The position numbers were made by a program, and so were the translations under genes. The notes beneath the pieces were generated by a model that ran no database searches, was not told the origin of the DNA, and worked only from the letters and a program-made list of their open reading frames with translations. This document shows, one piece after another, positions 3,789-60,824 of a stretch of 64,000 bases of DNA (position 1 is the stretch's first letter; each line of letters begins with the position of its first letter). Origin of the DNA: an uncultured Bdellovibrionales bacterium (GTDB lineage: Bacteria > Patescibacteriota > Minisyncoccia > Moranbacterales > GWC2-37-73). The DNA lies in assembly GCA_964609855.1 (NCBI GenBank), contig CAZSTB010000006.1:365-64364 (forward strand), given 5' to 3'.

Positions 3789-4811
3789 TTATAAATTTTT
3801 ATTAAAAAAATCCAAGGTTCGCCGCATGAAAATATTTTGCGACACATAAAAGACATGTCCTTCACTTGGATATTCAAAATAGCTGACGTCTTTACCTTGC
3901 GACTTTAATTCATTTGCCAAATCTCTCGACCACTGAACTGGAACATCGGGATCAAGTAATCCTTGGTGTATTATTAGCGGTCGCGTGATTTTGTCGAAAT
4001 AATTATTTGCCGAAATGCTTTTCCAAAATTCGGGATTTTCTTCGTATGTTCCATATGTTTCCAGGAAAGTTTTTGCTGTTTCGGAAAAGTCATTAGCAAC
4101 CCAGCGGTCATAATTTTTTTTGTAGTCTGCATTTATCGGCGCAAGTAGCGCATAAGCCTGAGCGCTATTTGGTTTGGTTACCATTACATTAAGTGCAATC
4201 CCTCCTCCCAACGAATGACCAAGCATAAAGATTTTTTCCCGGTTTAAAAAAGATAGCTCAGATTTTTTCAGCGCACTTATTCCATTAAGCACGTCTTCTA
4301 CATAGCCAGTACGTGGGCGCACGTCATTATATGGATCCCCATCAGAATTTCCGTAGCCTCTGTAATCAGAATAAAATGTAACGTATCCATTTCTCGCAAA
4401 AAAATCTTGCTCTCTTTGCATCCCGCCTTGTCCGATGCGATAAGCCGCTGGTTCAATATAGCCATGATTTATAATAACGATTGGGAATGGTCCTTCGCCA
4501 ATCGGAATATTCATAGCACCTGAAATTTTCAGACCTTCGCTTTTATAAGTTATGTAGTGGCGGGTATATAAATTATTTTGTGTAATAATTTTTTCCAGTT
4601 TTAAGTCAGTTCCTTGAAATTCTTTTTTTGACATTTCAAGAATTGATTCGGGCCAGGTTTTATTTTGCGTATCAGGTTGCATAATTTGCTGATTTTCAAT
4701 TGGAATATTTATTTTCCTGGAATTATTTTCAGACCAAAAAACTACAAAAATAATTGCAGCAAAGAGAATTCCTAAAAACAGAAGAATTTTTTTCATATTT
4801 TTATTGACCAC
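3789..4811 (-). CDS. alpha/beta hydrolase (S9 peptidase/esterase-like), membrane anchored
   Basis: N-terminal TM helix. GHSLGGG nucleophile elbow with downstream Asp and His candidates. Confidence 0.65.
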   Translation of the reverse strand: MVNKNMKKILLFLGILFAAIIFVVFWSENNSRKINIPIENQQIMQPDTQNKTWPESILEMSKKEFQGTDLKLEKIITQNNLYTRHYITYKSEGLKISGAMNIPIGEGPFPIVIINHGYIEPAAYRIGQGGMQREQDFFARNGYVTFYSDYRGYGNSDGDPYNDVRPRTGYVEDVLNGISALKKSELSFLNREKIFMLGHSLGGGIALNVMVTKPNSAQAYALLAPINADYKKNYDRWVANDFSETAKTFLETYGTYEENPEFWKSISANNYFDKITRPLIIHQGLLDPDVPVQWSRDLANELKSQGKDVSYFEYPSEGHVFYVSQNIFMRRTLDFFNKNL

Positions 4812-4971
4812 TGATAATTTTGAATGAAATATTTTTAATTATTGCAGGATTGCGGTTTGCATCTATTATTACAAAATACTTAGAAAGGATATTTTCTAGT
4901 TTCTATAATAATTAAGCTTAACGTGATAAGATAGTTTAGGCAAGACATTAATACAGCTAAAATAGAAATCC

Positions 4972-5463
4972 ATGTTTTCGAAAATACTAGCTTTGTTTAC
5001 AATTCCAGGCGTTGTTGTTCACGAGTTTGGTCATCAATTTTTTTGTCATTTAATGAGAGTTAAAGTTCGAGAAGTTTGTTACTTTCGTTTTGGAAATCCG
5101 GCAGGTTACGTAATGCATGATCAGGCGGGAAACTTCGTTCAAGCTTTTTTTATTAGTGCAGGACCGCTTCTTTTCGGATCGCTATTTTCTGCTGTGATGT
5201 TTTATTTTTTTCAGTCTGCAGGCGAATTGGAATGGAGGATGGTTTACATGTGGCTGGGATTTTCAGTGGCGATGCATTGCTTGCCAAGTAGAGGAGATGC
5301 AAAAAGTCTCTGGCAACAGAATTGGTCTCAGGCGAAGAGCAATATCTTGGCAATTTTTGGAATGCCGTTGGTTTTTATTATTTGGGTTTTGAGTATGTTG
5401 AATTTTCTTGTTTTTAATATTAGTTACGCTATTTTACTTTATATGATTTCGCAATATATTTAA
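4972..5463 (+). CDS. putative membrane zinc metallopeptidase (HEXXH, DUF3267-like)
   Basis: HEFGH motif within the first TM segment. Polytopic small protein. Confidence 0.5.
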   Translation: MFSKILALFTIPGVVVHEFGHQFFCHLMRVKVREVCYFRFGNPAGYVMHDQAGNFVQAFFISAGPLLFGSLFSAVMFYFFQSAGELEWRMVYMWLGFSVAMHCLPSRGDAKSLWQQNWSQAKSNILAIFGMPLVFIIWVLSMLNFLVFNISYAILLYMISQYI

Positions 5464-5498
5464 ATTTCCGCGAAACTGAAAAATTTCTAGTATGAAAA

Positions 5499-5530
5499 AG
5501 AAGCAACCTGTTTGGATTGCTTCTTTTTTA
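5499..5530 (+). terminator. rho-independent terminator
   Basis: GAAGCAA-loop-TTGCTTC hairpin followed by TTTTTT, directly after the 4972-5463 stop. Confidence 0.5.
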
Positions 5531-5779
5531 ATAAATGGCTCACCAGAGCCACGATTCAATGATTCCTGAAAAAAATTGGATTGAAAATGGCTTATTTGAG
5601 CCAAAAGGCCATGTTTATGGTTGACTGCATGGCAAAAAAGTGCTATTATTGACGGTTGACAATATGAGCCAGAGAAATTTAAGGTAGAAATCTGACCTTG
5701 GAAAATGGCTTAGTTGACCCAATTGCTTGTACTTAAAAGGGTGCAATGCAAGCGTTGGTTAACCAGTAAGTGATACTAC

Positions 5780-6343
5780 ATGCGTATAATCAGGATTGTT
5801 GTGATCCTCCTTGCTATGCTAATGATGGTTTTCCCATTTTTAGCTTCAGCAAACGAGACAATAAACTCTGATACAAATATAAATAAAACATTACTATATT
5901 TTTCAAAATTAATCGGTTCTGAAGTCGAAGCTGCTGAAACCGTGGTTAGCGAGCCTATTGAAATTGAAACACCAAAAACCGAAGAAGAAGTGAAAAGAGA
6001 TGCGATTTTAGGCAAATGGAAAACCAAACAAGCTTTAAAATGGGAAAATCTGCCAAAAGAAAGTTTTACAATCAATGCTTCGGCCTACACTGCTGCTGCC
6101 GATGAATGTGATAAGAGCGATGGTGTAACCGCTTCAGGGCTAGTTGTGAAAGCCAATAGAACTATTGCTTGTCCGCCGGAATTTCCCTTTGGAGTAAAAA
6201 TACAGATTGCTGATATGGGTATATTTGTGTGCGAAGACCGCGGCGGCGCTATCAAGGCTAACAAGATAGATATATACATGGAAACAAAAGACGAAGCTTT
6301 CAAATTTGGTAGACAAAATCTAATTGCCCAAGTTGTAGAGTAG
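5780..6343 (+). CDS. 3D domain (MltA-like) cell-wall binding/hydrolase protein, secreted
   Basis: Signal peptide. C-terminal region with conserved Asp residues (CEDRGGAI...IDIY) typical of the 3D domain (YuiC/YabE-like). Confidence 0.65.
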   Translation: MRIIRIVVILLAMLMMVFPFLASANETINSDTNINKTLLYFSKLIGSEVEAAETVVSEPIEIETPKTEEEVKRDAILGKWKTKQALKWENLPKESFTINASAYTAAADECDKSDGVTASGLVVKANRTIACPPEFPFGVKIQIADMGIFVCEDRGGAIKANKIDIYMETKDEAFKFGRQNLIAQVVE

Positions 6344-10447: not shown

Positions 10448-10978
10448 CTATGCAATGGAGTTTAACATAATCAGCTGAAATTTATAGTCATGAGTATCAA
10501 GAATTGCAAACGTCGGCGGATAATATTGATTGGCAACGTTTCCTGGATTTAGCATCTCACATTCTTTAACATTTCCATTTCGCTCGCCTTGAACTTTCTC
10601 AGTCCAAGGTTTATGTGTGTGTCCATAAAACACGTAGTCGAATTTTCCTTCCTCTGCCAAGCTCCGGGCATATTCAGGGAAATGGACAAAAGCAATTTTC
10701 TTATTGGCAATCTCAACTTCTCCATGTTTGGAAAAAATATTTATGCCTTTATATTTTCCATCGGCGAAAGGATAGTCGGCGGCATGACCCCGATCCATAT
10801 TCCCAAAGGTCCAAAAAATATCCCCTGAAAAATTTTCTTTCAGATAATCCAACGTTTCGATATCGGCAAGATCGCCGCAATGAATCAATTTTTCAACTTT
10901 ATTTTCCCTGCAATAATCCAAAACCTTTTTGAGGTTTGCGAGATTATCATGGGTGTCGGAGATGATTGCGATTAGCAT
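10448..10978 (-). CDS. YfcE/MJ0936-family metallophosphoesterase
   Basis: IISDTHDN ... HCGDL ... GHTH calcineurin-like motifs. Confidence 0.8.
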   Translation of the reverse strand: MLIAIISDTHDNLANLKKVLDYCRENKVEKLIHCGDLADIETLDYLKENFSGDIFWTFGNMDRGHAADYPFADGKYKGINIFSKHGEVEIANKKIAFVHFPEYARSLAEEGKFDYVFYGHTHKPWTEKVQGERNGNVKECEMLNPGNVANQYYPPTFAILDTHDYKFQLIMLNSIA

Positions 10979-11002
10979 ATTGTTTATTATAAGTATTTTA
11001 GC

Positions 11003-11482
11003 TTAAAGTTCTGTGATTTTATAATCTGTAATAGTATTCGAATCTTTCAAGTAAAATTTTGCTTTAAAATCTTTGCCTTGCAATATCAGTGGCAGCCAAA
11101 ATTTGTCATCGGGCCACATATTATTATACGGGATAGTATCGAAGTCAAACCATGCAGGAAGCATTTCACTTGTTTCAATGGGTTTATTTTCAAACTTCGT
11201 AACGGAATAAATGTGAACCTCAACAAGGGGTTTTCCCACAAAGGGATTTCCTGCTGGCTCAAATTTAAAAATAATCTCACCGCGCTTTTTCATGTCTAGC
11301 GGCTTGATTCCAGCTTCTTCAAAAAGTTCACGCTTAGCGGCCTGCTTAATGGATTCTCCTTTCTCAACTTTTCCACCAAAGCCGTTGAATCTATCTTTCA
11401 AGACGCCATCTTTTTTTATGCGTCCGAGTAGGATTTGCTTTTCATTGTAGACGCAGCAAAGCGTCATTATTTTTTTGCTCAT
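11003..11482 (-). CDS. NUDIX hydrolase (MutT-like)
   Basis: NUDIX box GFGGKVEKGESIKQAAKRELFEEAGI. Confidence 0.8.
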   Translation of the reverse strand: MSKKIMTLCCVYNEKQILLGRIKKDGVLKDRFNGFGGKVEKGESIKQAAKRELFEEAGIKPLDMKKRGEIIFKFEPAGNPFVGKPLVEVHIYSVTKFENKPIETSEMLPAWFDFDTIPYNNMWPDDKFWLPLILQGKDFKAKFYLKDSNTITDYKITEL

Positions 11483-11602: not shown

Positions 11603-12424
11603 TTATCCGCGTATTTTTTTAATGAGTTCAATGTCTTCTTTTACAAAATCATATTCAGTTTCGCAGATCATGGTGATGTCTCTTTCTTTTGCGAAAGCCA
11701 CAATGTTTCTGAAAGCTTCTTCGCCGATCAGACCCTTGCCGAGATGTTCGTGGCGATCTTTGCGCGAACCGAATTCTGTTTTGCTGTCATTGGTGTGAAT
11801 CAGTTTTATTTTATCGAGTCCAAGTTCGGCGTCTATTCTTGCAAGGGTATTTTTAAAGTCGCGCCAATCATAACCTGATGCAAATGAATGTTGGGTGTCG
11901 ATGCAAATTCCCGTGAGTTTCGGATGATTTATTTTTTCTAAGATGTATAAGATTTCCGAAAATTTGTCCCCGATTATTTTTCCTGCTCCGGCGCAATTTT
12001 CAATCAGAAGTTCGGCGCTTCCAGTGTATCCTTCCAATGTTTTGGCGAGCATCTCAACAACTTTGTCGGAAGCTTCTCTCTCGGAAAGTGTTCCCGCACT
12101 TCCAAGATGGGTCATGACATATTTAGCACCAAGAAGACTCGCTCTTTCAAGTTCATCTCGAACCACACTGACACTTCCATGACGGATACGATTATTTTCG
12201 GATGCGAAATTTATATAGTAGGGAGTGTGGACCACGACTTCTTTAATTTTAAATTTTAAATTTGAAATTTTAAATTTATGACAGATCTCATCTGTCAGGG
12301 TTAGTGCTTTTCCTCCTTGTGGCGACCGCGTGAAAATCTGCATGGCTTCGCAGCCGAGTTCAGCGGCTCTTTCAGGGGCATTAAAAACTCCTCCAGCAAT
12401 TGAAACGTGACAACCTATGTACAT
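11603..12424 (-). CDS. nfo: deoxyribonuclease IV (endonuclease IV, AP endonuclease family 2)
   Basis: Full-length similarity pattern: MYIGCHVSIAGG...HxxY...metal ligands. TIM-barrel AP endonuclease 2. Confidence 0.85.
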   Translation of the reverse strand: MYIGCHVSIAGGVFNAPERAAELGCEAMQIFTRSPQGGKALTLTDEICHKFKISNLKFKIKEVVVHTPYYINFASENNRIRHGSVSVVRDELERASLLGAKYVMTHLGSAGTLSEREASDKVVEMLAKTLEGYTGSAELLIENCAGAGKIIGDKFSEILYILEKINHPKLTGICIDTQHSFASGYDWRDFKNTLARIDAELGLDKIKLIHTNDSKTEFGSRKDRHEHLGKGLIGEEAFRNIVAFAKERDITMICETEYDFVKEDIELIKKIRG

Positions 12425-12674: not shown

Positions 12675-13397
12675 ATGGAACTGAGTTACCAAAAAGAGGA
12701 TACAATCGTAATGAGTGATTTTCATTTAGGCTCTCGTAATAGTAAATCTAAAGAAATCGCAAGATTCCTAAATGAGCTCTTAAAAAAACCACTAAACAGG
12801 TTGGTTTTAGCAGGGGATATGTTTGAGTTTTGGAGTGCAAGCTATAAAAATATCGGAATCGAAGAGCATCGGATAATTAAGCTTATTGCGCAGCTCTCGG
12901 AAAATGGAACTAAGATAGTCTATATCCCGGGAAATCACGACAGGGCTTTCAGGGCTTTCCCGAAACTCACCTTTGGCCGTGTAAAGATGCGCAACGAATA
13001 TATTATCAAGCACGATCATAAGAAATACTTAGTGATGCACGGAGACGAATTCGACGCTTTCACGAGAAATCATGCGGTTGTTTCCATTTTAATAGACCAG
13101 CTGTATGTTTTTTTAATCAGAATAAACTCATTTTTGAGAACTTATTCTCGTTCAAAAAAATCACTTTCGGCGCTTAAACATTCGAGAACATACGCTGAAA
13201 CAGTGGAAAAAATTCGAAGTTTGGCAATTTCTTATGCGCGTTCAAGAAAATTAGACGGAATTATTATTGGTCACAGTCATTGGCCGGAACTTGTGCACGA
13301 AGCTGACGGTGTCATGTATGCAAATGCAGGCGACTGGATTGAGAGTTGCAGCTATGTGGTTATTGGCGACAATATAAGATTGGAATACTTTAAATAA
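12675..13397 (+). CDS. LpxH-like metallophosphoesterase (UDP-2,3-diacylglucosamine hydrolase family)
   Basis: VMSDFHLG ... LAGDMFEFW ... GNHD ... GHSH motifs of the calcineurin-like LpxH subfamily. Confidence 0.6.
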   Translation: MELSYQKEDTIVMSDFHLGSRNSKSKEIARFLNELLKKPLNRLVLAGDMFEFWSASYKNIGIEEHRIIKLIAQLSENGTKIVYIPGNHDRAFRAFPKLTFGRVKMRNEYIIKHDHKKYLVMHGDEFDAFTRNHAVVSILIDQLYVFLIRINSFLRTYSRSKKSLSALKHSRTYAETVEKIRSLAISYARSRKLDGIIIGHSHWPELVHEADGVMYANAGDWIESCSYVVIGDNIRLEYFK

Positions 13398-13490
13398 TAA
13401 TAGCAGCAAATTTTTAATTTTTAATTTACAATTTTAAATCAATTTATAATTTCTCAATTTATAAATGTTTAAACATTTGTTGATTAAGAT

Positions 13491-13633
13491 TTTATTGTCG
13501 AACGAAGTCGAGCGAAACGAAAATGATTTTTGTTTCCGAGCGAGTGATGACATCAAAAGGTTTAATACCTCGTGGCTTGCCGCGGAAACCCAAAGGGTTC
13601 GGGGCTTGCCCCGGGGTTAATACCTTTTATTTT
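13491..13633 (+). repeat. structured intergenic repeat / candidate ncRNA, copy A
   Basis: About 90% identical to 60682-60824. Two hairpins with compensatory changes between copies. Ends in AATACCTTTTATTT. Confidence 0.7.
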
Positions 13634-13663
13634 AAATTTCAAATTTCAAATTAAAAATTTATT

Positions 13664-14623
13664 TTAAACTATTTCCCAGCCACTGTCGGTTTCAATGATT
13701 TTTCCTTTTACTTCAAATCCGCTGGCAAGTTTATGCCCGCCGCCGCCAAAAAGGTGAGCTATTTCACTAACATCGACTCCTTTGTATTCCTCGCTTCGCA
13801 GCGAGCCTTTGATGACGCCGTTTTCGCGTTCTGAAAGTACGAGCGAAAATTTTGTGCCTGGCACGGTATTTAAAATTGAAGCAACTTGGCCGATGTCGTC
13901 AGTTGTGGCGCTGCATTCTTCGATATCCGCTTCGGTGAGCACCGTTGTAATCAGTCCATTTTTTGGATTGATTTTGGCTTTCTCAAAAGCGCGACCCCAT
14001 AATTTTAAGGTGGAAAGTTTTTTGTTGGCAAAGGTTGCTTCAATAATTTTAGAAACCGAGGCGCCTTTTTTCATTAAATCTGAAGATATTTCCATTACGC
14101 GACTTGAAGTGTTGGCATGCTGAAAATTCCCGGTGTCGGAAAGTATTCCGATCATTAAATAGGTAGCTATACTTTTTGAAATGCGCGCCTCCTGAGCCGC
14201 TAAGTATTCATAAATCAGTTCGCATGTAGAGGAACATTTAGCATCAATAATCACCACATCAGCTTTAATTGTAATGTCGGGATGATGATCAATGATAACC
14301 GTAACAGTTTCTTTTTTTAAATCGGGCAGAGTTTTTTGAAAGCCGCGCTCCACGCTGTCGCATCCGATTGCTGCATCGTATTGAGTCAAATCCAGCTTGC
14401 TTGGCAAATGGAATTCATGGTTGGTTAATTTTTCCATAAAATTCGGAAGCGGATCCAAGCATGCGATATCTGCCTCAATGCCAATAGAGTTGAGATATTC
14501 TTTGAATGCTAAAACACTCCCAGCAGTATCGCCGTCAGGACCAGAATGTGCAAAGAGCAAAATCTTTTTTGATTTGCTGATTACGTAGGCAAGCGTATTA
14601 AATTCTTGAGTGAAATCTTTCAT
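13664..14623 (-). CDS. nrnA: DHH-family phosphoesterase NrnA (oligoribonuclease/pAp phosphatase)
   Basis: Motifs HSGPDGDTAGS, DHHPD, and GGGGHKLASG (DHHA1). Confidence 0.8.
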   Translation of the reverse strand: MKDFTQEFNTLAYVISKSKKILLFAHSGPDGDTAGSVLAFKEYLNSIGIEADIACLDPLPNFMEKLTNHEFHLPSKLDLTQYDAAIGCDSVERGFQKTLPDLKKETVTVIIDHHPDITIKADVVIIDAKCSSTCELIYEYLAAQEARISKSIATYLMIGILSDTGNFQHANTSSRVMEISSDLMKKGASVSKIIEATFANKKLSTLKLWGRAFEKAKINPKNGLITTVLTEADIEECSATTDDIGQVASILNTVPGTKFSLVLSERENGVIKGSLRSEEYKGVDVSEIAHLFGGGGHKLASGFEVKGKIIETDSGWEIV

Positions 14624-15062: not shown

Positions 15063-15191
15063 AGGTTTAAAAATTTTTAATTTTCAATTTCTAATTTTTA
15101 AACAATTCCCAATGACTAAATGTTTTAAGCATTGGAAGTTTTGAAAATTGAATAATGGTTTGAAAATTGAAAATTGTGAATTGAAAATTAT
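15063..15191. repeat. AT-rich spacer with AATTTTC/GAAAATT heptamer repeats and an imperfect CCAATG...CATTGG palindrome
   Basis: Direct inspection: GAAAATTGAAAATTG..., CCAATGACTAAATGTTTTAAGCATTGG. Confidence 0.5.
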
Positions 15192-17013: not shown

Positions 17014-17517
17014 TTATAATTTCACTGGCTTTATTGTTTGGGCACTTTTGATGGCTTGTTTCTCTTCTTCGGTAAGGGTATATTTTTCAGATGCGCCTTT
17101 TGTGATTGGTTTTGAATAAATTCTGGTCCCTTCACGTGTGTGGAGCGATGAAATAACTATTCCCGCATCCTTACCGTCCAGCAGTGCTAATGCAAAACTT
17201 TGATCCCCGCCGATATCCTTAAAGGGGTTAAAGCGGATGATGCCAACTTTATGGATGCTGCGAAGTGTGAGGGCGTGTACTTTATTTAAAATTTCGAATA
17301 ATTCTTGGATTTCAGTGTCTAGCTCGGTAATTTGGCCTGCATGAGCCAAAAGAATGGATTCCAAATCTTTCGCTTCATTCCCACTAAATAAAACTTTCAT
17401 GTTCGCTTCCATCTTTCTTTGGCGAGAAGCGGTTAAAAGAGTCGAAATTAGACCGAGTGTCGCTAAAAAAACTCCAAAAATTGAAAGATAAAGCGTAATT
17501 TGTGATGTCTGTAACAT
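17014..17517 (-). CDS. hypothetical membrane-anchored protein (DUF4446-like?)
   Basis: N-terminal TM helix followed by a soluble domain. No catalytic motif. Confidence 0.4.
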   Translation of the reverse strand: MLQTSQITLYLSIFGVFLATLGLISTLLTASRQRKMEANMKVLFSGNEAKDLESILLAHAGQITELDTEIQELFEILNKVHALTLRSIHKVGIIRFNPFKDIGGDQSFALALLDGKDAGIVISSLHTREGTRIYSKPITKGASEKYTLTEEEKQAIKSAQTIKPVKL

Positions 17518-17719
17518 ATTGCAGTGTTATTTATGCGATATGTTTCTCATCGTAGCATCTATTTTGCTTTGTGTAAAGAAAAAAACAAGCCTAACGCCAG
17601 TTTCCACGTTATATCATAAAGTAAGAAATTCACACTCTTACGTGTTACAAATGAATCCCGCCTTCGCTCTATTTTCAGCGGACTTTGTCCGCCGAAGCCG
17701 AGCTATGGCGAGGCGAAGG

Positions 17720-17808
17720 CGGAAGGCACAGGATTTGAACCTGTGAAGAGATTTCTCCCTTACCGCATTTCGAGTGCGGCGCATTCGACCGGGCTCTGCC
17801 AGCCTTCC
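17720..17808 (-). tRNA. tRNA-Ser (CGA)
   Basis: Reverse complement folds as acceptor GGAAGGC/GCCTTCC, D-stem GCA/TGC, anticodon loop CTCGAAA, long variable arm, T-arm ACAGG-TTCAAAT-CCTGT. Confidence 0.8.
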
Positions 17809-17859
17809 CTGATAATCATTTAATCATGAAAACAGATAATCAGACAAATATGTGATCGT

Positions 17860-17945
17860 GTAATCATTTAAACATTTAAACACGCAATCATTTAAACATT
17901 TAAGTGCTTACTGCCGAATGATTAAATGTTTTAATGATTGGATGA
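17860..17945. repeat. cluster of AATCATTTAAACATTTAA direct repeats (x2) plus inverted copy
   Basis: 17866-17883 and 17890-17907 are direct copies. 17919-17940 is an inverted copy AATGATTAAATGTTTTAATGATT. Confidence 0.5.
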
Positions 17946-18015
17946 CCCATTCCTCTTTGTTGTTTTTGGGTTTTTGTTGTAAACTATAGAAGTACGATTC
18001 TATAAAAAAAATACT

Positions 18016-18570
18016 ATGGATGCTCAACAAGGTGGCGTTGGAAAATTTCTTGATCCTAATGCTATTATTGCACAATTGGATATTAAAAATGGAGAGATTG
18101 TCGCGGATTTCGGATGTGGCCCTGGTTATTTTTCTTTGCCATTTTCAAAAGCCGTTGGCGATGATGGAAAAGTTTTTTCGTTGGATATTCTTCCGCAAGC
18201 CCTGGAAAGTATTGAAAGTAAAGCTAAAAATTCTGGAATTGCCAACATTACAACAAAACGCGTAAATCTGGAAAAAGCCAATGGTTCAAAACTTGATGAT
18301 GATTTCGCAGATTGGATTGTCTTGAAAGATGTCTTGTTTCAAAACAAAGACAAAAATATTATCATTGCAGAAGCGTATAGAGTCTTAAAAATGGGTGGAA
18401 AGGTTTTACTGATTGAATGGAATCAAAAGGAATCTGCAATCGGACCTGATTTGGATATCCGTATTTTGCCAGAAACCCTTAAGCAGGCTTTTCAGTCGCT
18501 GGGATTTGAATTGGCGGGGGATATTCAAGCAGGAGCGTTTCATTACGCTTTTGTTGCTGTAAAGAAATAA
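18016..18570 (+). CDS. class I SAM-dependent methyltransferase
   Basis: Motif I VADFGCGPGYFS. Acidic motif II. Confidence 0.7.
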   Translation: MDAQQGGVGKFLDPNAIIAQLDIKNGEIVADFGCGPGYFSLPFSKAVGDDGKVFSLDILPQALESIESKAKNSGIANITTKRVNLEKANGSKLDDDFADWIVLKDVLFQNKDKNIIIAEAYRVLKMGGKVLLIEWNQKESAIGPDLDIRILPETLKQAFQSLGFELAGDIQAGAFHYAFVAVKK

Positions 18571-18580
18571 AAATTTTCTT

Positions 18581-20053
18581 ATGGAGCAAGTAACTATGAA
18601 AAATAAAATAAAAAACAAAATTCGGGTAATGATGTTGATTTTAGCAGTTGTGATAGTCCCGCTTTTTTCAGGATGTGGCGCTGAGCCTCAGGCTGGTTAT
18701 CTTGTGAATCTTGAAATTTGGGGAATATTTGATGACTCCACTGTTTATTCGCAAATAATAAATGATTACAAGATGATTAATCCCTACGTGGGAGAAATTA
18801 AATATCGAAAATTTTCAGAAGATACTTACAAACAAGAACTTATTGATGCCTTAGCATCCGGCACTGGGCCAGATATTTTTCTGATCAATAATGGTTGGCT
18901 TCCAGCTTTTCAAAATAAGGTTGAGCCTGCACCCTCGCCAATTGTCGGAGAAATTGATATGAAAAATAATTTTCCCGATATTGTTGCAGGAGATTTTATG
19001 AGTGAAGGAAAGGCATATGCTGTGCCGCTTAGTCTAGATTCGATGGCACTTTATTATAATAAAGACATGTTTAATGCTGCTGGAATTACAGCTCCACCTA
19101 AAACCTGGCAAGAATTTGATAATGCTGTAGCTAAATTGACTGTAATTGATTCCGTTGGAAACTTTAAACAATCAGGAGCTGCTTTTGGCACAGGTAGAAA
19201 CATAAATCGTTCCGCGGATATTTTTAGCATGCTTATGTTTCAAGCAGGAGTGGACTTGCCAACAAAAAAGGGGGTGCAAGTTAAATTAGATGAGGGGGTT
19301 ATTGGCGGAGATGGCAATGTTACCCAGGCTGGTGAAACCGCACTTGGGTATTATACCAAGTTTGCCAAGCTTTCAACTGAAAATAATATGCTAAATCCTT
19401 TGTATACCTGGAACTCAAGGAACCAATATTCAATAGATGCTTTTGCTGAAGGTAGTGCAGCAATGATGTTTAATTACTCTTGGCAGATGGCTGCCATTAA
19501 AAACATGAATTCAAAGCTGAATTTTGCAGTTGCTCCCGTTCCTCAACTGTATCCAGAAAAACCAGTTACGGTTGGTAATTATTGGGGGTTTGCAGTAGCG
19601 AAAAATAAGTTGACTCCCGTGACCCGGGCAGCGTCTGGGCAGGCAGCAGCTCCCGCGATACCAAATGAAATTCGCACCCATGAAGCATGGCAATTTTTAA
19701 GATTCCTAACTCTAAAGAATAATAAAGTTGTAACCCTATATAACGCAGTAACGAAAAATAAAAAAGATTTCCCCGTAAATATTGATCCTGCTCAGGAATA
19801 TCTAAAAAAGACAAAGCAACCGGCAGCTAGACGTGATCTGATTGATCTGCAAAAAAACGACAGCACGCTTAGTGTTTTTGCTACAGGCAATTTGATTGCA
19901 AAGCATTGGTATCAGGCTGATCAAGCATCAATTGATAACATTCTCATTGAGATGATAGAATCAGTGAACAGGGGCGATGTCTCCTACCATGACGCGTTAT
20001 CTTTAGCTAAAAATAGAATAAATTACCTCTCGCAAGGAAGCACCTCCAGATAA
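18581..20053 (+). CDS. extracellular solute-binding lipoprotein (ABC transporter SBP family 1-like)
   Basis: Lipobox LFSGCGA. Size and pattern typical of sugar/oligosaccharide SBPs. Confidence 0.65.
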   Translation: MEQVTMKNKIKNKIRVMMLILAVVIVPLFSGCGAEPQAGYLVNLEIWGIFDDSTVYSQIINDYKMINPYVGEIKYRKFSEDTYKQELIDALASGTGPDIFLINNGWLPAFQNKVEPAPSPIVGEIDMKNNFPDIVAGDFMSEGKAYAVPLSLDSMALYYNKDMFNAAGITAPPKTWQEFDNAVAKLTVIDSVGNFKQSGAAFGTGRNINRSADIFSMLMFQAGVDLPTKKGVQVKLDEGVIGGDGNVTQAGETALGYYTKFAKLSTENNMLNPLYTWNSRNQYSIDAFAEGSAAMMFNYSWQMAAIKNMNSKLNFAVAPVPQLYPEKPVTVGNYWGFAVAKNKLTPVTRAASGQAAAPAIPNEIRTHEAWQFLRFLTLKNNKVVTLYNAVTKNKKDFPVNIDPAQEYLKKTKQPAARRDLIDLQKNDSTLSVFATGNLIAKHWYQADQASIDNILIEMIESVNRGDVSYHDALSLAKNRINYLSQGSTSR

Positions 20054-25000: not shown

Positions 25001-25037
25001 TGGCGAATCAATTTTCAATTTTCAATTTTCAATTTTC
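25001..25037. repeat. tandem heptamer AATTTTC x5
   Basis: CAATTTTCAATTTTCAATTTTCAATTTTCAAC directly after the virB4 stop and a short palindrome TTCGCCAGCTGGCGAA. Confidence 0.6.
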
Positions 25038-25055
25038 AACGAGTCCATTTATTAC

Positions 25056-28347: not shown

Positions 28348-28710
28348 ATGATAAATTCATATAAAGACTTAATTGTTTGGCAAAAATCAAAGGATTTAGT
28401 CATTGAAATTTATAAAATTGTCGCTAATTTTCCTAAAGATGAAATTTATGGATTATCTTCCCAAATGCGCAGGTGTTCAATTTCAATACCATCAAATATC
28501 GCAGAGGGCAGATATAGGGGAACAAAAAAGGATTTCTTGCATTTTTTAAGAATTTCTTTTGGGTCAGGTGCTGAACTGGAAACACAGATATTAATTGCAA
28601 AGGAAATTTATGCTGATAGGGAAATTGATTTTGAAAAAGCTGAAAAATTATTAGAAGAAGTGATGAAGATGTTAAATGTTATGATTAAGAATTTAAATCC
28701 TAAAAGCTAA
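28348..28710 (+). CDS. four-helix-bundle protein (23S rRNA intervening-sequence protein family, TIGR02436)
   Basis: YKDLIVWQKSKDLVIEIYKI...SQMRRCSISIPSNIAEG...FLHFLRISFGS signature. Confidence 0.8.
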   Translation: MINSYKDLIVWQKSKDLVIEIYKIVANFPKDEIYGLSSQMRRCSISIPSNIAEGRYRGTKKDFLHFLRISFGSGAELETQILIAKEIYADREIDFEKAEKLLEEVMKMLNVMIKNLNPKS

Positions 28711-37125: not shown

Positions 37126-39119
37126 TATCTATGGACTTTAATTTTGCGCAAAACAATTCAGCATCTCAAAAAACTGGTTCCTTGGAGCAGTCTTTTGTCG
37201 GCGTTGTGGAGAATGAAAAACAACGACTGGCGACTGGATATGCAGCTGTTGTTGAAGAAATTCAAGCAAAAAGAAACAAGGAAAATGCAGGTGCGCAAAT
37301 ATTTCCCGCTTCAGTTGCATCTTTACATCCTGATGTTGTTGATTTTTTACTAAATTTTGATTTGGTTTCAGTTTATGATGATATCGCCAAACAAAACAAC
37401 TTGGATGAGAAAGGCCGCAGTAGCTTGCCGCAAATAGTTTGGAAGCTTGTTAGAGAAGGAAATTGGAACGCCTTGGATGAAACGTTAGAAGCTAAAATTC
37501 CCTTGGTGCATTCCGTACATGTAAATGTCGCTAACCTTTTGCAGCAAAATATTTTAGCAAAAGTGAAAGCTCTGTCTGAAAAACCGGTTTCCAGAAAAGG
37601 TATTATCAGCGAAGCTACGAAGAAAATCGTAAGCATTCCGCTGAAGAAAGCTTTGCTTGATTATCCGAAACTTGGAGAGCAAAATGTGACAATCAGTCAG
37701 ATTGAGCTGAAATATTTTCCTACGCCTGTCAGGCCTTCGATTAAGAATTGGATTACAGACTTTCATGATCAGATGGGGGCAATTAAACATTCTCCAATTG
37801 ATCGCGGAAACTATTTGTTCCACAGCGAAAATGGAAAAAAACTTACCTCTCTGGAGCGGCAGAAGCTTTCAATGATTTTGAAAAGTTTAGATGAAGATAC
37901 GAATCTGGATATTGATGCTGAAGCGCAAGTCCTTATATTTGAAATAGAAAAACCGCAAATAAATCCAGTGGCGAATGATCGATATAAAACTGTGGTGAGT
38001 GATAATTTTACTGATGTGCAGAAAAACGTTCCAGCTGAACAGTTAATAAGTCGACCAGTATTGGATTTTGGACAAAGGCAGCAAACTATTGAGCAGGAAA
38101 AGCAGTCTGAAATAGAAAATAGTGAGGAATTACTAAAATCCCGCGAAGAAAAATTGAATAATCTTGGTAAATTTTTTGGCGAAAAAGCTGGCTTGCAGCC
38201 AGAAGTAAAAACGCCTGCGGATGATAACTTAGAACAGGTAGCTAAACCGCAAGTCAAGCCGTTGTCGTCAGAGCAGGCTACAGGCGGCCTTAAGGCTGCG
38301 TTAAATTTCTTTAAATTAAATAAAGTTAAAAATTCCAAATCGGAAGAAAGAGAAAACCAAGTTCCAACTGCGGAAATTATGCAAAAGGATTTATTCAAGT
38401 TGCCAACCTCGAAGCCGCAATTGGGGACTGAAGAATATAATGTAAGAAAAAGTTTTGTTGAGCAGAGTAATGTGGAAGAAAAAAAAGCTCAAGAGCTGCC
38501 GTTTCAAAGCGATATGATTTCAAATGTTAACAATGTAAAATTTTCAAACAGCGACAATATACATTTTTCATCGCCTCAGAAACTGCCTGCAGAGGAAAAA
38601 TTCGCCGCGCCTGCGAAAATGAGCGCCCCTAATTTTGCCTCCAACAGTATGGCATACGTTAGGCCTACAGCAACTTTCAAAGTTCAAGATGTTCCAGCTG
38701 TAGAGCCAGAAATTGTCACCCCTGCGCCAACTTTAGCAAGTCCGCAAATTAAAGCTGATTACGAGATGGCATCAAATTCAAGGATAAGTTCCACCTTGTC
38801 TCCCTCAACTACTATAAGCCGTCCAATTCCAGCTCCAATTCCAACTCCTATATCGGCGCCAATTCAGCAAGTAACTTCAATGACTGAACCAGTAGTTTCT
38901 CCAGTGCCAGTATTTTCTCCGATCGTTGATCTTAAGCGAGACTCAGCGCCAGTCCCCGTTGAAACAACTCAGCAAATTAGCAGCGAAGAGCATTCCATTA
39001 AAAAGGCGACTCCTGCAATCGCAAGAAATCCATTCAGAATCGTTCCAAGAAATTACTCAGAGGGAATTGAAGATGAAAAAATTTCAGCTCCAAAAAATGT
39101 TGTTAATCTAAAAGAATAA
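37122..39119 (+). CDS. hypothetical large protein with low-complexity Pro/Ser-rich C-terminus
   Basis: 665 aa. ATGA overlap with the previous gene. No TM and no catalytic motif. Confidence 0.5.
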   Translation: MISMDFNFAQNNSASQKTGSLEQSFVGVVENEKQRLATGYAAVVEEIQAKRNKENAGAQIFPASVASLHPDVVDFLLNFDLVSVYDDIAKQNNLDEKGRSSLPQIVWKLVREGNWNALDETLEAKIPLVHSVHVNVANLLQQNILAKVKALSEKPVSRKGIISEATKKIVSIPLKKALLDYPKLGEQNVTISQIELKYFPTPVRPSIKNWITDFHDQMGAIKHSPIDRGNYLFHSENGKKLTSLERQKLSMILKSLDEDTNLDIDAEAQVLIFEIEKPQINPVANDRYKTVVSDNFTDVQKNVPAEQLISRPVLDFGQRQQTIEQEKQSEIENSEELLKSREEKLNNLGKFFGEKAGLQPEVKTPADDNLEQVAKPQVKPLSSEQATGGLKAALNFFKLNKVKNSKSEERENQVPTAEIMQKDLFKLPTSKPQLGTEEYNVRKSFVEQSNVEEKKAQELPFQSDMISNVNNVKFSNSDNIHFSSPQKLPAEEKFAAPAKMSAPNFASNSMAYVRPTATFKVQDVPAVEPEIVTPAPTLASPQIKADYEMASNSRISSTLSPSTTISRPIPAPIPTPISAPIQQVTSMTEPVVSPVPVFSPIVDLKRDSAPVPVETTQQISSEEHSIKKATPAIARNPFRIVPRNYSEGIEDEKISAPKNVVNLKE

Positions 39120-39297
39120 AAGGTATTGTATCCCAGGGCAGAGCTCTGGACTCCCTTGGGCCCACGCAGCCCGTCTCGCCCGAGGCTTTGCCGAGGGGGA
39201 CAGAGCTGTGAGGTGCCTGCCCTGTCTACCGATAGGCAGGCGGTAGGCAGGGAAATGGAATATTAATTTTCATTTCGCTCGCTTCGTTTGATAATAA
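39113..39297 (-). repeat. structured intergenic repeat / candidate ncRNA, diverged copy C (GC-rich core)
   Basis: Minus-strand 5' module AAACGAAGCGAGCGAAATGAAAAT... and 3' end ...AATACCTTTTATT match copies A and B. The 120-nt core is about 65% GC. Confidence 0.55.
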
Positions 39298-39391
39298 AAC
39301 AATATCTTTGATTTGAGATTTTTTATCAAGTGTTTGCAAGGGAGAAAATCGACTGCTTGAGCGAGAAAGGTGCTTTAAGTTAAATATAAGA

Positions 39392-39676
39392 TTGGAAAGT
39401 ATGCTTGAATTCATAAATATAGCACAGGCCGGAATTATTAGTGATGCACCCAGTGTTTCGAGTCTGGGAATTAAGATTTTAAATTTTTTGTTGTCAGTAG
39501 TTGGATTTTTTGCTATAATTTCTTTAGTGTTGGCAGGGATAAAATACTTTTTTGCACTTGGTGATAAGAAGCAAATTGAAAATGCAAAAAATGCCGCGAC
39601 GGCTGCCGTTTGGGGAATTGCGCTTGCGATGGGAGGAATGATCCTGATAAGGTTTATTGGACAATTTTTTCAATAG
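39392..39676 (+). CDS. T4SS pilin-like (TrbC/VirB2-like) small protein
   Basis: 94 aa. Two-helix module with KYFFALGDKKQIENAKN...IG motif. Confidence 0.45.
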   Translation: MESMLEFINIAQAGIISDAPSVSSLGIKILNFLLSVVGFFAIISLVLAGIKYFFALGDKKQIENAKNAATAAVWGIALAMGGMILIRFIGQFFQ

Positions 39677-39754
39677 CACTAGCGAATGATAATATAACGA
39701 GATTTTGGGAAAAAAATATATAAAAAATAAAAACTAGGAAAGGAGGTGTAATTT

Positions 39755-40108
39755 ATGAACATTGTTAAAAAATTTGTATACGGAATCGCTTCAATTATCG
39801 TGGTGTTGCCGACAACCGTGGGAGCTCAACTTCAGACACCTGAAGGAACAGGTCTTCCAGCGGGAAGTGTGATAAATATCATAACCAATGGAATGAATTA
39901 TCTTTTGATTCTCGTTGGTGTTCTTGGAGTTATCGGATTCGTTATCGCTGGTATCATTTATTTGACTGCAGCTGGCGACGAAGATCAGATAGAAAGAGGA
40001 AAGAGAACTATGATCAATTCTATCATTGGAATCATCGTAGCGCTTTTGGGAATCATTGTTTTGACAGCCGTAAAAAGTATGCTTGGGGGAACTGATAAAA
40101 CTTTCTAG
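39755..40108 (+). CDS. T4SS pilin-like small protein
   Basis: Strong RBS AGGAAAGGAGGT. Motif IYLTAAGDEDQIERGKR...IIG. Confidence 0.5.
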   Translation: MNIVKKFVYGIASIIVVLPTTVGAQLQTPEGTGLPAGSVINIITNGMNYLLILVGVLGVIGFVIAGIIYLTAAGDEDQIERGKRTMINSIIGIIVALLGIIVLTAVKSMLGGTDKTF

Positions 40109-40129
40109 TTCTGCAAGTTACATTTTGTA

Positions 40130-40166
40130 CAAGCAAAAAACAACCTTAAGGGTTGTTTTTTGCTTG
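40130..40166 (+). terminator. rho-independent terminator
   Basis: CAAGCAAAAAACAACC-TTAA-GGGTTGTTTTTTGCTTG. Confidence 0.6.
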
Positions 40167-40328
40167 CGTAAAAATTATAAGACCTATATTTATATATACA
40201 CTTTTACTGAAAATATGCTATAATGAATATGAAAATATCTTAAAAATTTATTCTTCCGTTGTTTTTTGATCAGCTACGCTTGCTATTGAATTAGAAAGAT
40301 AGCTTTTGAAAAAAAATAAAAAATAAAA

Positions 40329-40784
40329 ATGAAAGTACAAAATAAGATTCTGTCACTAATTGTTTTCTCATTTGTCTTTTTTGCGCAAGTCCTGCCAGTA
40401 CTTGCTGGTCCAGAATGGAATGCATCAGTCGGGCCAGATGGAAATGTGGGTTTTCAAATAGGTACACAACAGGGTCTTAATGCTCTCAATGGAAATAATG
40501 CTGACGCAGCAATGAATAATCCATATGGCTTGCCGGGTGGAAGTATTTTGGATATAATTTCAAACCTCTTGTTTTGGCTGCTGGCTATTTTTTCCGTACT
40601 AGGAATCATTGGCTTTTTGATTTCTGGAATCTTGTATCTTCTGGCTGGTGCGGATGAGGATAATGCAAAAAAGGGAAAAGAGGGCATGAAAGCTTCAATT
40701 ATTGGAATCATTGTCGGTCTTTCAGGTTATGTTATCATGCAGGCAGTTGGAATATTTTTACGCGGAGATACGACAATGTTCTAA
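40329..40784 (+). CDS. T4SS pilin-like protein
   Basis: Signal peptide. Motif LYLLAGADEDNAKKGKE...IIG. Promoter GAAAATATGCTATAAT at 40210-40226. Confidence 0.5.
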   Translation: MKVQNKILSLIVFSFVFFAQVLPVLAGPEWNASVGPDGNVGFQIGTQQGLNALNGNNADAAMNNPYGLPGGSILDIISNLLFWLLAIFSVLGIIGFLISGILYLLAGADEDNAKKGKEGMKASIIGIIVGLSGYVIMQAVGIFLRGDTTMF

Positions 40785-40840
40785 AGTAGATTGATTAGGT
40801 TTGATTTAGATAAATACAGTAATCAGTTTTTATAACAAAA

Positions 40841-41710
40841 ATGAAAAATAAAAGCGCATATTTATTTGTTGGCATTTTCCTATTCTCAGGCTTACTTTTT
40901 TTTGGAGAAAGTGAAAAAGCTAACGCTCAAGCATTTTCTGGATCATATTCATACTCTGAATGCAAAAGTGATGGTGGAAGTGAGGCGTATTGCAGTCAAT
41001 TTAGCGGTGCACCTCAATCTTCCACAAATATCAGCAATGCATCCGCAGGAAGTTGCCGTTTCAATAGTGATTGCGGAAATAATTTTACGTGTTATCAGGA
41101 TACCTGTATGGATGATGCAACCTATCAGGAAAATGTTTCTTGGATTAATCGTACTGGTAACGCCGTGTCGCAGGTACTAACTCCTGGTGGGTCAATATTT
41201 GATGATGGTACGAATTCTACCTCTTCTTCATCAGGTGGGGAGCTAACGATGATTGCTTATGATATTAATGGTAACCCTGTTTTTGATCCTGACCAATATG
41301 CTGGAGCAGGAAATACGAATTCTAATATTGTTAACAATAACAACAACAGTAATAATACTGGATCCGGCAATACTAACGGAATTCAAACAGCAAAATGCAG
41401 CGGGGCAAATTTTACGGAAATCGGGGGAATCTGTTTTCCTGTAGACACAGGCATGCCGAATCCAGAATTCGGAATAGTCCAGATTATTGGCAATCTCTTT
41501 TCCTGGTTAATGGGTTTATTTTCCGTGCTTTCCTTGGCGGCTTTTGTGATATCCGGAATTCAGTATGTCACATCCGCTGGAGATTCTGGCCAAGCAGAGA
41601 CTGCTAAAAAGAACGCCCTAAATGCTGTTTTAGGAATTATTGTGGGTTTCTCTGGTTTTGTTATTGTTCAAGCTGTGAATTATGCACTAGAGGGGCAAGG
41701 TTTCTTTTAA
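40841..41710 (+). CDS. Cys-rich secreted protein fused to C-terminal T4SS pilin-like module
   Basis: Motif QYVTSAGDSGQAETAKKNA...GII. N-terminal Cys-rich region and an Asn-rich tract. Confidence 0.5.
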   Translation: MKNKSAYLFVGIFLFSGLLFFGESEKANAQAFSGSYSYSECKSDGGSEAYCSQFSGAPQSSTNISNASAGSCRFNSDCGNNFTCYQDTCMDDATYQENVSWINRTGNAVSQVLTPGGSIFDDGTNSTSSSSGGELTMIAYDINGNPVFDPDQYAGAGNTNSNIVNNNNNSNNTGSGNTNGIQTAKCSGANFTEIGGICFPVDTGMPNPEFGIVQIIGNLFSWLMGLFSVLSLAAFVISGIQYVTSAGDSGQAETAKKNALNAVLGIIVGFSGFVIVQAVNYALEGQGFF

Positions 41711-41734
41711 GATAGTTTTTATTGGAAGAATTTT

Positions 41735-42616
41735 ATGAAATTAAAAAAACTTTTATTTCTTAGCTTATTTCTTAGCTTATTTTTTGTTGGAAATGGCGTA
41801 GAAGCCGTAACTGAGTGCGAAACCGCCGGCGGAATTTGCAGTATTTTTTCGAATATGACTTGCGAATCCAGGCATTTATTGGGAAAGGAAGATATGGTAA
41901 CCACAAATCTCTCGTGCAACAATAGTGCAGCAAGTTGTTGCATGCCAAAAGTTGCCACTCCTGCAATAACAGCACCAGTTACAACACCAACCACACCAAC
42001 TACAACTCCAGTTACAACCCCAGTTACAGCCCCAACCATTAACACTCCAACTACAAATACCCCAACTGTTAATCCTCCAGTTACGGCTAATGCAAATGCT
42101 TGTTCAGATCTTGAGTATTTAGGTCGCGATGGAAATTGTTATCCCAAGGAGAATCTAAATATAGAAAATGGCAATTTATGTTCCGATATTGAGTATCTAG
42201 GTCTCGACGGAAATTGCTACCCAAGGGAAAACTTAAACATTGTAAATGAAAATAATAACACTTTCCCCGGTGTGCCTAGTGGCGGCGCTCAGACTGCCAA
42301 ATGCGGCAATGGCTTCTATGAGAAAGGAAATGTTTGTTTTCCAACACAAACGGGACTGCCAAGTCCAGAAAACGGTGTAGTTCAAATTCTCAGTAACCTT
42401 TTTTCCTGGTTAATGGGTTTATTTACCATACTTTCGTTGGCAGCTTTCACGGTTTCTGGCATTCAATATGTAATTTCTGCTGGAGATTCAGGTTTGGCTG
42501 AAACTGCCAAGAAAAACGCAGTCAATTCAATTATTGGAATTGCAGTGGGACTTTCTGGATTTATCATCGTACGGGCCATAAATGCGGCACTTACTGGGCA
42601 GGGTTTTTTCTTTTAG
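41735..42616 (+). CDS. Cys-rich, Thr/Pro-linker secreted protein fused to C-terminal T4SS pilin-like module (paralog of 40841-41710)
   Basis: Internal tandem duplication CSDLEYLGRDGNCYPKENLNIENGN / CSDIEYLGLDGNCYPRENLNIVNEN. PTTPTTTPVTTPV linker. Motif QYVISAGDSGLAETAKKNA. Confidence 0.5.
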   Translation: MKLKKLLFLSLFLSLFFVGNGVEAVTECETAGGICSIFSNMTCESRHLLGKEDMVTTNLSCNNSAASCCMPKVATPAITAPVTTPTTPTTTPVTTPVTAPTINTPTTNTPTVNPPVTANANACSDLEYLGRDGNCYPKENLNIENGNLCSDIEYLGLDGNCYPRENLNIVNENNNTFPGVPSGGAQTAKCGNGFYEKGNVCFPTQTGLPSPENGVVQILSNLFSWLMGLFTILSLAAFTVSGIQYVISAGDSGLAETAKKNAVNSIIGIAVGLSGFIIVRAINAALTGQGFFF

Positions 42617-47141: not shown

Positions 47142-47145
47142 GGCA

Positions 47146-47263
47146 GGAATTAGGAATTAGGAATTAGGAATTAGGAAAATTCAAAATAAAAAACACCATC
47201 AAGGTGTTTTTTATTTTCTCTGAATTTTGCTACAACCTACAACCTAATTCCTAATGCCTAGGA
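47146..47263. repeat. GGAATTA x4 tandem heptamers, inverted partial copy, enclosing a bidirectional terminator
   Basis: GGAATTAGGAATTAGGAATTAGGAATTAGG ... AACACC-ATCAA-GGTGTT ... CCTAATTCCTAATGCCTAGG. Confidence 0.5.
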
Positions 47264-48840: not shown

Positions 48841-49203
48841 TTAAACATTTAAGCATTTAAACATTCAAACATATGTTAAACATAAAAGCCTCAATAATAA
48901 TCTTTGTATTTATGTTTATTGCTCGTATGTTTGTATGCTCACATGACATAGTTTAGCATTCCCTGAGCCTTTTGACAAAATGGGCCTTTTCCTTTAATAT
49001 AGGGCTAGCGTATAACTAAGTTAATATTGATCGGTTCGATTTGATAAGTGATACAAATTTCCTCGCATTAAAGCGATTTTGCAATATAATTATGATTTAT
49101 TTTTCTCAGCAAAAACATAAAACTTTAGAAGAGAAAATTTAAGGTATTTTAAGATACCTTGCTTCAGTGCGTATTGCCCATCAAACGAAACGAATGAAAA
49201 AGT

Positions 49204-50730: not shown

Positions 50731-50965
50731 TGATACAATTTTGAATTTCGAATTTCCAATTTTGAATAAAATTATGATGATCAAATGTTTCAAGCATTCG
50801 AAAATTTATTTATTTGGAGTTGATTTAAAATTAAAAATTTAAAATTAAAAATTTTCGTCTTGTAATCAAGACAGTTGTGTATAACTAAATTTGCTTTATC
50901 TGCAACAAAAAGAGTATAATCGGGTAAGTGAGATAAACATAAAACTAGAAAGGATGGTGACTACT

Positions 50966-60605: not shown

Positions 60606-60681
60606 TTGTTTTCAAGGGAAATAAAAAACGCAGCTGGTGCTGTGTTTTTTTGTTGTCGCAAAATAGCGTTATGTAAGTTTG

Positions 60682-60824
60682 TTTATTGTCGAACGAAGTC
60701 GAGCGAAATGAAAATGAATTTTCGTTTCCGAGCGAGTGATGACATCAAAAGGTTTAATACCTCGCGGCGGGCCGCGAAAACCCAGGGGGTTTGGGGCTTG
60801 CCCCGGGGTTAATACCTTTTATTT
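60682..60824 (+). repeat. structured intergenic repeat / candidate ncRNA, copy B
   Basis: About 90% identical to 13491-13633. ORF-track entries 60606-60812 and 60736-60960 overlap it and are judged spurious. Confidence 0.7.

Follow-up and report, generated by a model that had tools for sequence, protein, structure and literature searches.

Repeat Copies in the Window

The window, by which is meant the whole 64-kb stretch of DNA analysed, contains three copies of a hairpin-forming repeat, designated A, B, and C. Copy A is found in the spacer between the genes for a metallophosphoesterase (12675-13397, + strand) and nrnA (13664-14623, - strand), while copy B separates a gene for a membrane protein (59859-60605, + strand) from thiI (60819-61994, - strand). 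Both pairs of genes are convergent, as the first-pass annotation had described. The stop codon of thiI (60819-60821, - strand) falls within the terminal TTTTAT of copy B. The neighbours of copy C are two + strand genes, to both of which it is antisense; a T4SS-pilin-like paralogous gene array with internal DNA repeats (39392-42616) is located directly downstream of it. The features are:

13491-13633, + strand: copy A, a full-length subfamily-1 element, core 13496-13630
13496-13552, + strand: 5' domain of copy A, a rod hairpin closed by UGUC/GACA and capped by the variable hairpin 1 (13514-13537)
13555-13628, + strand: 3' domain of copy A, with the outer helix AAAAGGU/ACCUUUU followed by the TTAATACC / GGTTAA helix
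13571-13584, 13587-13599, and 13600-13613: GC-rich hairpins 2 (CUUG loop), 3, and 4 (CUUG loop) inside the 3' domain of copy A
39116-39299, - strand: copy C, a rearranged or decayed element, search score 23 bits, E = 0.02
60623-60650, + strand: ordinary intrinsic-terminator-like hairpin with a T-run that belongs to the gene upstream; it precedes copy B by 30 nt and lies outside the repeat
60682-60824, + strand: copy B, a full-length subfamily-1 element, core 60687-60822
60687-60744 and 60747-60820, + strand: 5' and 3' domains of copy B

The sequence TTTTAT stands directly 5' of the core of copy A (13490-13495) and again forms its last 6 nt (13625-13630). The hairpin and T-run at 60623-60650 show that the gene upstream of copy B has its own terminator.

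Copies A and B, both on the + strand, align unambiguously at about 90% identity over 143 nt, in agreement with the earlier description. Core words of 21-24 nt from them occur exactly twice each in the window, while shuffled sequences are expected to give none. The left limit of the identity is TTTATT and the right limit TTTTATTT. Loosely similar stretches of 20 nt precede A (13471-13495) and B (60660-60686) (GTTGATTAAGATTT vs GTTATGTAAGTTTG), a likeness absent in the copies of other genomes, and this may mean that the unit extends further in this genome, or may be due to chance.

The two copies differ by nine substitutions and one indel. Five of the substitutions and the indel are found in loops or junctions, and all four substitutions in stems retain the pair, as G.U or G-C. 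In a simulation with random placement of the same mix of transitions and transversions the probability that no pair is lost was 0.014. The first reading of these differences as compensatory thus holds insofar as pairing is kept, but they are not double swaps; with the related copy L003 as the inferred outgroup they are single transitions to wobble pairs, and true double compensatory changes do not become visible until the comparison is widened to copies of other genomes. The plus strand is favoured, as 46 of the 49 model pairs form on the + strand and 41 of 49 on the - strand, and the folding z-scores of A and B, taken singly, are -4.0 and -4.5 on the + strand against -1.5 and -1.8 on the - strand. 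A and B also share a G-C pair in hairpin 4 where the other aligned copies have A-U, as well as a GG--TTAATACC deletion. These signatures in the sequences suggest that both copies stem from a master copy peculiar to this genome, or that they have evolved in concert.

A third copy had been counted but not placed in the first-pass annotation; the third copy of the window in the present analysis is the rearranged copy C. It retains a subfamily-2-like 5' strand with hairpin 1, and the 3' end CCTTTTAT. The 3' strand of the rod has been swapped for other GC-rich palindromic modules (CCTGCCTACCG and others) that are shared with loci L004 and L002.

Copies in Related Genomes

Scanning of genomes and metagenomes with conserved words led to 14 related loci, with L006 and L009 left out as chance 21-mer matches within GC-rich coding DNA. 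A profile search with nhmmer and a search with a covariance model built on the 5' domain, the latter of the kind proposed at the outset, then recovered additional copies in those loci and in the nrnA-anchored loci of relatives. Altogether there are 20 independent loci from at least four genome lineages, comprising the window and related Moranbacteria contigs. The window has three copies, L011 has four within 14.5 kb, L021 and L024 have two each, and L030 has one; no copy was detected by the profile or covariance-model search in L026, L028, L031, or L032. The window belongs to a Candidatus Moranbacteria genome; its NrnA is 100% identical to a protein encoded on an NCBI contig of 65.6 kb, and the relatives at 82-85% identity are Moranbacteria MAGs. 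Judged by their sequences, copies A, B, and C are members of a previously undescribed modular family of hairpin-forming repeats in a clade of Candidatus Moranbacteria (CPR/Patescibacteria), which are ultra-small bacteria of groundwater.

The Logan contigs assembled from short reads of the source samples (runs SRR446575-7) that encode identical NrnA and ThiI terminate inside copies A and B, at window positions 13610 and 60795, which is how assemblers behave at repeats. The Rfam scan asked for earlier matched no family: Rfam 15 gave nothing at the gathering score across the window and nothing at the four copies of L011 (E <= 1). Around copy A only noise was seen at E <= 10, such as the C/D-box-like sR16 (GUGAUGA) with 18.6 bits against a threshold of 70 bits. 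The conserved words had no match in the scanned viral contigs, and a phage as vector was rejected on this ground. A search of the literature on CPR, Patescibacteria, or Moranbacteria for repeats of this kind gave nothing relevant.

Structure and Covariation

The fold, strongly supported by the 20 loci, consists of two unlike domains, a 5' rod and a 3' domain. In the helix that closes the rod, U(G/A)U(C/U) pairs with (G/A)A(C/U)A. Beyond it, Watson-Crick steps of 2 bp that covary alternate with invariant internal loops, in which either strand reads 5'-GA-3'. These GA/GA loop sequences suggest tandem G.A pairs. Hairpin 1 caps the rod and varies freely in both sequence and length, but its pairing is always kept.

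The alignment of the rod takes in three subfamilies (GUC/GAC, AUC/GAU, and GUU/AAC). In it 97.6% of the cells are paired, compared to 34-54% in slid controls, and 9 of the 19 pairs have changed on both sides. For the whole element 96.7% of the cells are paired, with seven compensatory pairs, and the slid controls gave 38-49%. The same fold and the same rod register were recovered independently by RNAalifold. Its register was the one used, as the manual register gave 92.8% paired cells and fewer compensatory pairs.

In the 3' domain AAAAGG(U)/(A)CC(C)UUUU makes up the closing helix, in line with the outer helix proposed from copies A and B, and the second helix inside it is formed by two copies of the palindrome GGTATTAATACC. 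In the long forms this second helix encloses three GC-rich hairpins, two of which have CUUG loops. Covariation is seen in hairpin 2, where one position has U.G, C-G, or A-U and the next G-C or A-U.

The alignment contains 31 G.U cells and 9 A.C cells, which is a modest bias towards the + strand. The case for conserved hairpins with real covariation, favouring the + strand, thus became stronger as copies were added up to the 20 loci. The compensatory changes are common to all copies within a genome, which means that selection for folding has acted on the lineage that propagates. This fits a fold that would be needed for propagation, either as one DNA strand or as RNA.

Ends, Modules, and Length Forms

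The element is 85-190 nt long (multi-copy, 20 loci), with a core of about 85-100 nt and long forms of about 135-190 nt. The core unit is the 5' rod hairpin together with a short A-tract/U-tract hairpin on the palindrome GGTATTAATACC. The long forms add GC-rich palindromic modules, hairpins 2-4 as well as others, nested in the loops. Short forms have one TTAATACC and long forms two. Four independent copies (L010a, L011b, L024a, and L010b) are short forms without hairpins 2-4, while extra nested palindromes are found within hairpin 2 in L002 and L030, and within the rod in L004, L010b, and copy C. Near-identical strains differ at orthologous loci by clean deletions at microhomologies: hairpin 1 is deleted when L005 is compared to L016 and L012 to L015, and the 3' end is lost when L001 is compared to L015.

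Essentially all copies have the ends (T)TTAT|T(G/A)TC ... CC(C)TTTTAT|. The left junction is (T)TTAT in most copies (ATTAT, CTTAT, and CTAT in three), and the last 6 nt are TTTTAT in all of them. Terminal inverted repeats are absent, since the 5' end (TGTCGAACGAAG) and the reverse-complemented 3' end (ATAAAAGGGTATT) display no complementarity. The minimal repeat common to both ends is TAT; at 3-4 nt and AT-rich, it is possibly just a part of the element.

The upstream flanks of the copies are unrelated to one another, and no promoter therefore belongs to the repeat unit. Scanning identified no + strand promoter near A or B, and a simple scan of 13300-13800 and 60500-61000 found no terminator-like site. 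The latter result is explained by the U-tract not adjoining a GC stem: it pairs with the upstream A-tract, and 12 nt separate it from hairpin 4. An intrinsic terminator in the usual sense was thus rejected, as no GC-rich stem immediately precedes the U-tract.

Placement Relative to Genes

Synteny was compared in eight genomes over a block of about 20 kb, T4SS-SBP-methyltransferase-infB-rbfA-nrnA-metallophosphoesterase. The element is found in five spacers of this block, and each of these is filled in merely one or two of the eight genomes. The nrnA/metallophosphoesterase spacer is filled only in the window, by subfamily 1, and in L024, by a divergent subfamily; in L021/22/23, L028/29, and L030 it is empty or holds a plain terminator. 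As the two filled sites have the element in the same orientation, it could have been retained there from an ancestor. The VirB4/TraC and SBP/methyltransferase spacers are filled in L021-L023 only and are empty in the window and six other genomes, while the PrgI/pilin spacer is filled in L024 only. Presence/absence polymorphism between strains was not seen, as all the orthologous strain pairs compared carry the element. Further mobile genes come and go in this region: genes encoding HNH and LAGLIDADG-like endonucleases and an Mrr-like restriction gene (L021 14618-15091; L030 16929-17651 and 19777-20496) are present or absent among the syntenic relatives.

Relative to the adjacent genes 12 of the 20 copies are sense and eight antisense. 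Several of the antisense copies are found within strings of co-directional genes, including a spacer of the T4SS operon.

Two copies are found inside genes. In L002 the element lies within a DUF192 gene, between the N-terminal transmembrane helix and the domain, as a 174-nt segment that is in frame and free of stops. The homologue P0121 lacks this 58-codon insert, and its helix runs straight into the domain. In L007/L011 an element of 144 nt is in frame in the N-terminal region of a 1029-aa DUF4012 ORF. Both copies are multiples of three and use the sole + frame that is free of stops. This frame 0 is open in intact subfamily-1 copies; among the intergenic copies there are frameshifted ones, for instance copy B, and subfamily 2 has stops in nearly all frames. 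The frame-0 peptide had no match among 5.8 billion proteins. From the empty peptide search and the stops in subfamily 2, a protein-coding repeat was rejected. The gene call for a solute-binding protein at L021 4502-6028, which spans 4502-5971 in the corresponding record L022, runs 19 codons into the element; this extension is an annotation artefact caused by the open frame of the element.

Other Repeats in the Window and Its Relatives

Many spacers of the window contain AT-rich tandem repeats with a 7-nt period (AATTTTY, AGGAATT), which form long inverted repeats across the spacer. They are located as follows:

13408-13442 and 13626-13660, no strand assigned: AT-rich inverted repeats with a 7-nt period that bracket copy A, spanning 13408-13660
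12245-12275, 13408-13473, 13626-13660, 15070-15144, 25010-25039, 47145-47259, and 50736-50855: 7-nt-period repeats

Copy A thus occupies the loop of an AT-rich spacer hairpin, and equivalent heptamer inverted repeats are found in the empty orthologous spacers. The orthologous spacers of relatives have other heptamers (AATTACG, AATCATG) in the same arrangement. From their sequences, the heptamer arrays may be lineage-specific bidirectional terminators.

The genes of the window are mostly on the - strand from 2.5 to 17.5 kb and mostly on the + strand from 18 to 47 kb, with the switch at tRNA-Ser (17718-17808). Beside this tRNA gene is a cluster of TCATTTAAACAT-type repeats with an 8-nt period (17500-18020, 17816-17899), which recurs at 48837-48880. 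The switch in orientation and these repeats could mark a replication origin or terminus, or the repeats could be another family. A GC-rich island (GACCCGGGCAGCGTCTGGGCAGGCAGCAGC and following) is found at 19605-19667 within the gene for a solute-binding protein (18581-20053), in a genome of 38% GC. It resembles the GCAGGCAGG-type palindromic modules of copy C, L004, and L026, and by this resemblance it may be an in-frame module insertion. The nrnA spacer of an ACD_56C-like genome (L026 at about 10960-11103, L027 2088-2170) contains a different GC-rich palindrome, GCCTGCCCGGCGGGCAGGGCAGGCAGG, where both contigs end. It probably represents a further family of repeats or modules at which assemblies break off. 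The window ORF at 28348-28710, directly upstream of ksgA/RrnaAD, matches PF05635, the family of 23S rRNA intervening-sequence proteins, with 127 bits, and also has a weak bAvd-like match.

Comparison with Known Repeats

The Rickettsia palindromic elements (RPEs) are dispersed, hairpin-forming, and about 100-150 bp long, and they occur in a small genome rich in AT. No transposase is known for them, and they are found both in spacers and in frame inside protein genes, to which they add a peptide segment (PMC10969869). The present family is like them in its in-frame insertion into coding sequence, seen at 2 of the 20 loci, although the likeness is one of features, and with the phylum being different a common origin of the sequences is unlikely. 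It differs in that nearly half of some RPE families lie in ORFs, and in that the Moranbacteria family is strongly modular with optional hairpins, while its G.A-rich rod is conserved.

The enterobacterial ERIC forms a single long imperfect palindrome, whereas the Moranbacteria element consists of two unlike domains. ERIC also has terminal inverted repeats (PMC10969869), which the Moranbacteria element does not. ERIC and the pneumococcal BOX/RUP/SPRITE are small structured spacer repeats that occur in either orientation and have length variants arising through internal indels; BOX has the modular build A-B(n)-C, elements of the ERIC/BOX type nest in one another, and their copy number is lineage-specific (PMC10969869). 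The Moranbacteria family shares with these the modularity, the nesting, the occurrence in either orientation, the length variants, and the lineage-specific copy number. We know of no sequence similarity between them.

Like a classical MITE such as Correia, the element is short (less than about 300 bp), non-coding, and multi-copy, is found at AT-rich sites, and has a possible short target duplication. Unlike such a MITE it lacks terminal inverted repeats, the analysis turned up no IS related to it, and the putative duplication is TAT/TTAT and not a clean TA. With the ends of IS200/IS605, PATEs, and REP/RAYT, systems whose HUH/Y1 transposases are strand-specific and recognise hairpins, it has in common the absence of terminal inverted repeats and the presence of hairpins near both ends. 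As in elements of the IS200/IS605 type, the left end borders on a constant TTAT that recurs at the right end, and the fold is strand-biased and tolerates G.T/G.U. By this analogy a relation to IS200/IS605 is possible. It differs from IS200/IS605 and REP/RAYT in that the DNA examined revealed no gene for TnpA, TnpB, or RAYT. The geometry of the hairpins relative to the ends also differs between IS608 and the Moranbacteria element.

A number of other candidates were rejected. REP sequences are 20-40 nt long with a GTAG/CGTC head (PMC3733652); the present unit is 85-190 nt and without such a head, and no Y1 transposase is found among the 36 window ORFs scanned, so that REP/BIME with RAYT was set aside. 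The differences between A and B (C/T, T/C, T/G, G/A, A/G) are not adenine-specific and no reverse transcriptase is found in the scanned ORFs, which speaks against a DGR template/variable pair. Inspected manually, the loops consist of tandem G.A in a 2x2 or 3x2 arrangement, while a k-turn is a 3-nt bulge with GA/GA. A hammerhead or hairpin ribozyme core is not supported, since GUGAUGA is found instead of CUGAUGA and Rfam is empty. For an integron attC site the order of the GTT/AAC boxes is reversed; moreover, both orientations occur and there is no cassette array.

Nature of the Family

The family is probably a dispersed, non-autonomous, modular repeat of the insertion type, akin to MITE, RPE, ERIC, and BOX, and not a dedicated small RNA gene; most likely it is selfish mobile-type DNA. 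Three options had been put forward in the first-pass annotation, a small RNA gene family, a structured 3' UTR or terminator module, and a MITE-like element. The last of these fits best, with the reservation that the absence of terminal inverted repeats separates the family from classical MITEs. New copies turn up at T-rich (T)TAT sites in spacers and, now and then, in frame within genes; the family may still insert at such sites, or may once have done so. The copies then decay or are remodelled through deletions at microhomologies and swapping of modules, in the simplest account by way of instability of the palindromes. We infer that one strand, the + strand as ssDNA or RNA, must fold for propagation, and such a requirement would account for stems that covary and accept G.U pairs and for G.A loops that stay invariant, the latter being a likely surface for protein recognition. 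The mobilising enzyme would act in trans, and a strand-specific, hairpin-recognising enzyme of the HUH/Y1 type is a guess. No transposase was identified by a Pfam scan among the 36 window ORFs, where the sole recombinase-type match is XerD-like, and no autonomous parent or cognate IS with the same ends was seen in the about 0.4 Mb of sequence examined. A co-transcribed copy would form a very stable multi-hairpin structure and may incidentally affect mRNA 3' ends, as a by-product and not as the reason for the family.

The invariant G.A loops, the covarying stems, the G.U bias of the + strand, and the CUUG tetraloops are equally expected of a functional RNA, and the covariation had at first been taken to argue for one. 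If this were a multi-copy family of small RNA genes, the + strand of every copy would give rise to a transcript of its own, which would act in trans or use the G.A-rich rod to bind a protein. The helices that covary around invariant non-canonical loops would suit such an RNA, as would a + strand that folds much better than the - strand, the excess of G.U over A.C cells, the recurring CUUG loops of hairpins 2 and 4, and the U-rich tail after the closing helix. Yet the unit starts at TTATT and its upstream flanks are unrelated, so that no conserved promoter exists, and none was found by scanning near A and B. The sites are moreover lineage-specific and non-orthologous, the orientations are mixed, two copies are in frame within ORFs, whole domains are dispensable in many copies, and modules are gained or lost between near-identical strains. 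The lack of both a terminator-scan match and an Rfam match points in the same direction, and a small RNA family is hence considered improbable.

It seems unlikely, too, that the element is a domesticated cis-acting module of transcript ends (a terminator, 3' UTR stabiliser, or RNase barrier) selected for its effect on the flanking mRNAs, in which case mRNA 3' ends would be expected at CCUUUUAU. Copies A and B lie between convergent genes, the copies in L016, L003/L013, L008b, and L015 come straight after a gene or after the terminator of that gene, the closing helix of A-tract and U-tract looks like a bidirectional terminator, and the orthologous empty spacers have ordinary terminators at the same place. 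On the other hand, a simple terminator scan gives nothing within the element, copy B and several others are redundant since they come just after a separate canonical terminator, and the short forms do without the GC hairpins. Eight of the 20 copies are also antisense, several of them in co-directional strings, including the T4SS operon spacer, where a terminator would be polar. As for a simple segmental duplication, or a chance likeness without any family, just two close copies are obvious by eye in the window; with core-word, profile, and covariance-model matches at about 20 loci with unrelated flanks, from several genomes and samples, its probability is negligible.

A more far-reaching version, which can be put forward only tentatively, is that the (GA-NN)n rod would be the recognition module of a new strand-specific CPR system for mobilisation or RNA binding. 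The family would then represent either a class of hairpin-guided mobile elements without terminal inverted repeats or a protein-bound structured RNA, present at about one copy per 10 kb in genomes of about 1 Mb and exapted as translated linkers in membrane proteins.

Implications

The genomes of CPR/Patescibacteria are tiny and are usually considered to be poor in repeats. The structured repeat described here occurs about once every 10 kb; it alters spacers, interrupts assemblies, and provides genes with additional peptide segments. The family thus bears on the quality of MAG assemblies and on strain typing, and it is also relevant for annotation through false N-terminal extensions, as for the solute-binding-protein gene of L021, and spurious small ORFs. 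It constitutes an independent parallel to the Rickettsia RPEs in another lineage with reduced genomes. The (GA-NN)n rod with its covarying steps is the feature of the family most worth following up, as the invariant G.A loops together with these steps offer a practical starting point in the search for the protein by which the element is recognised.
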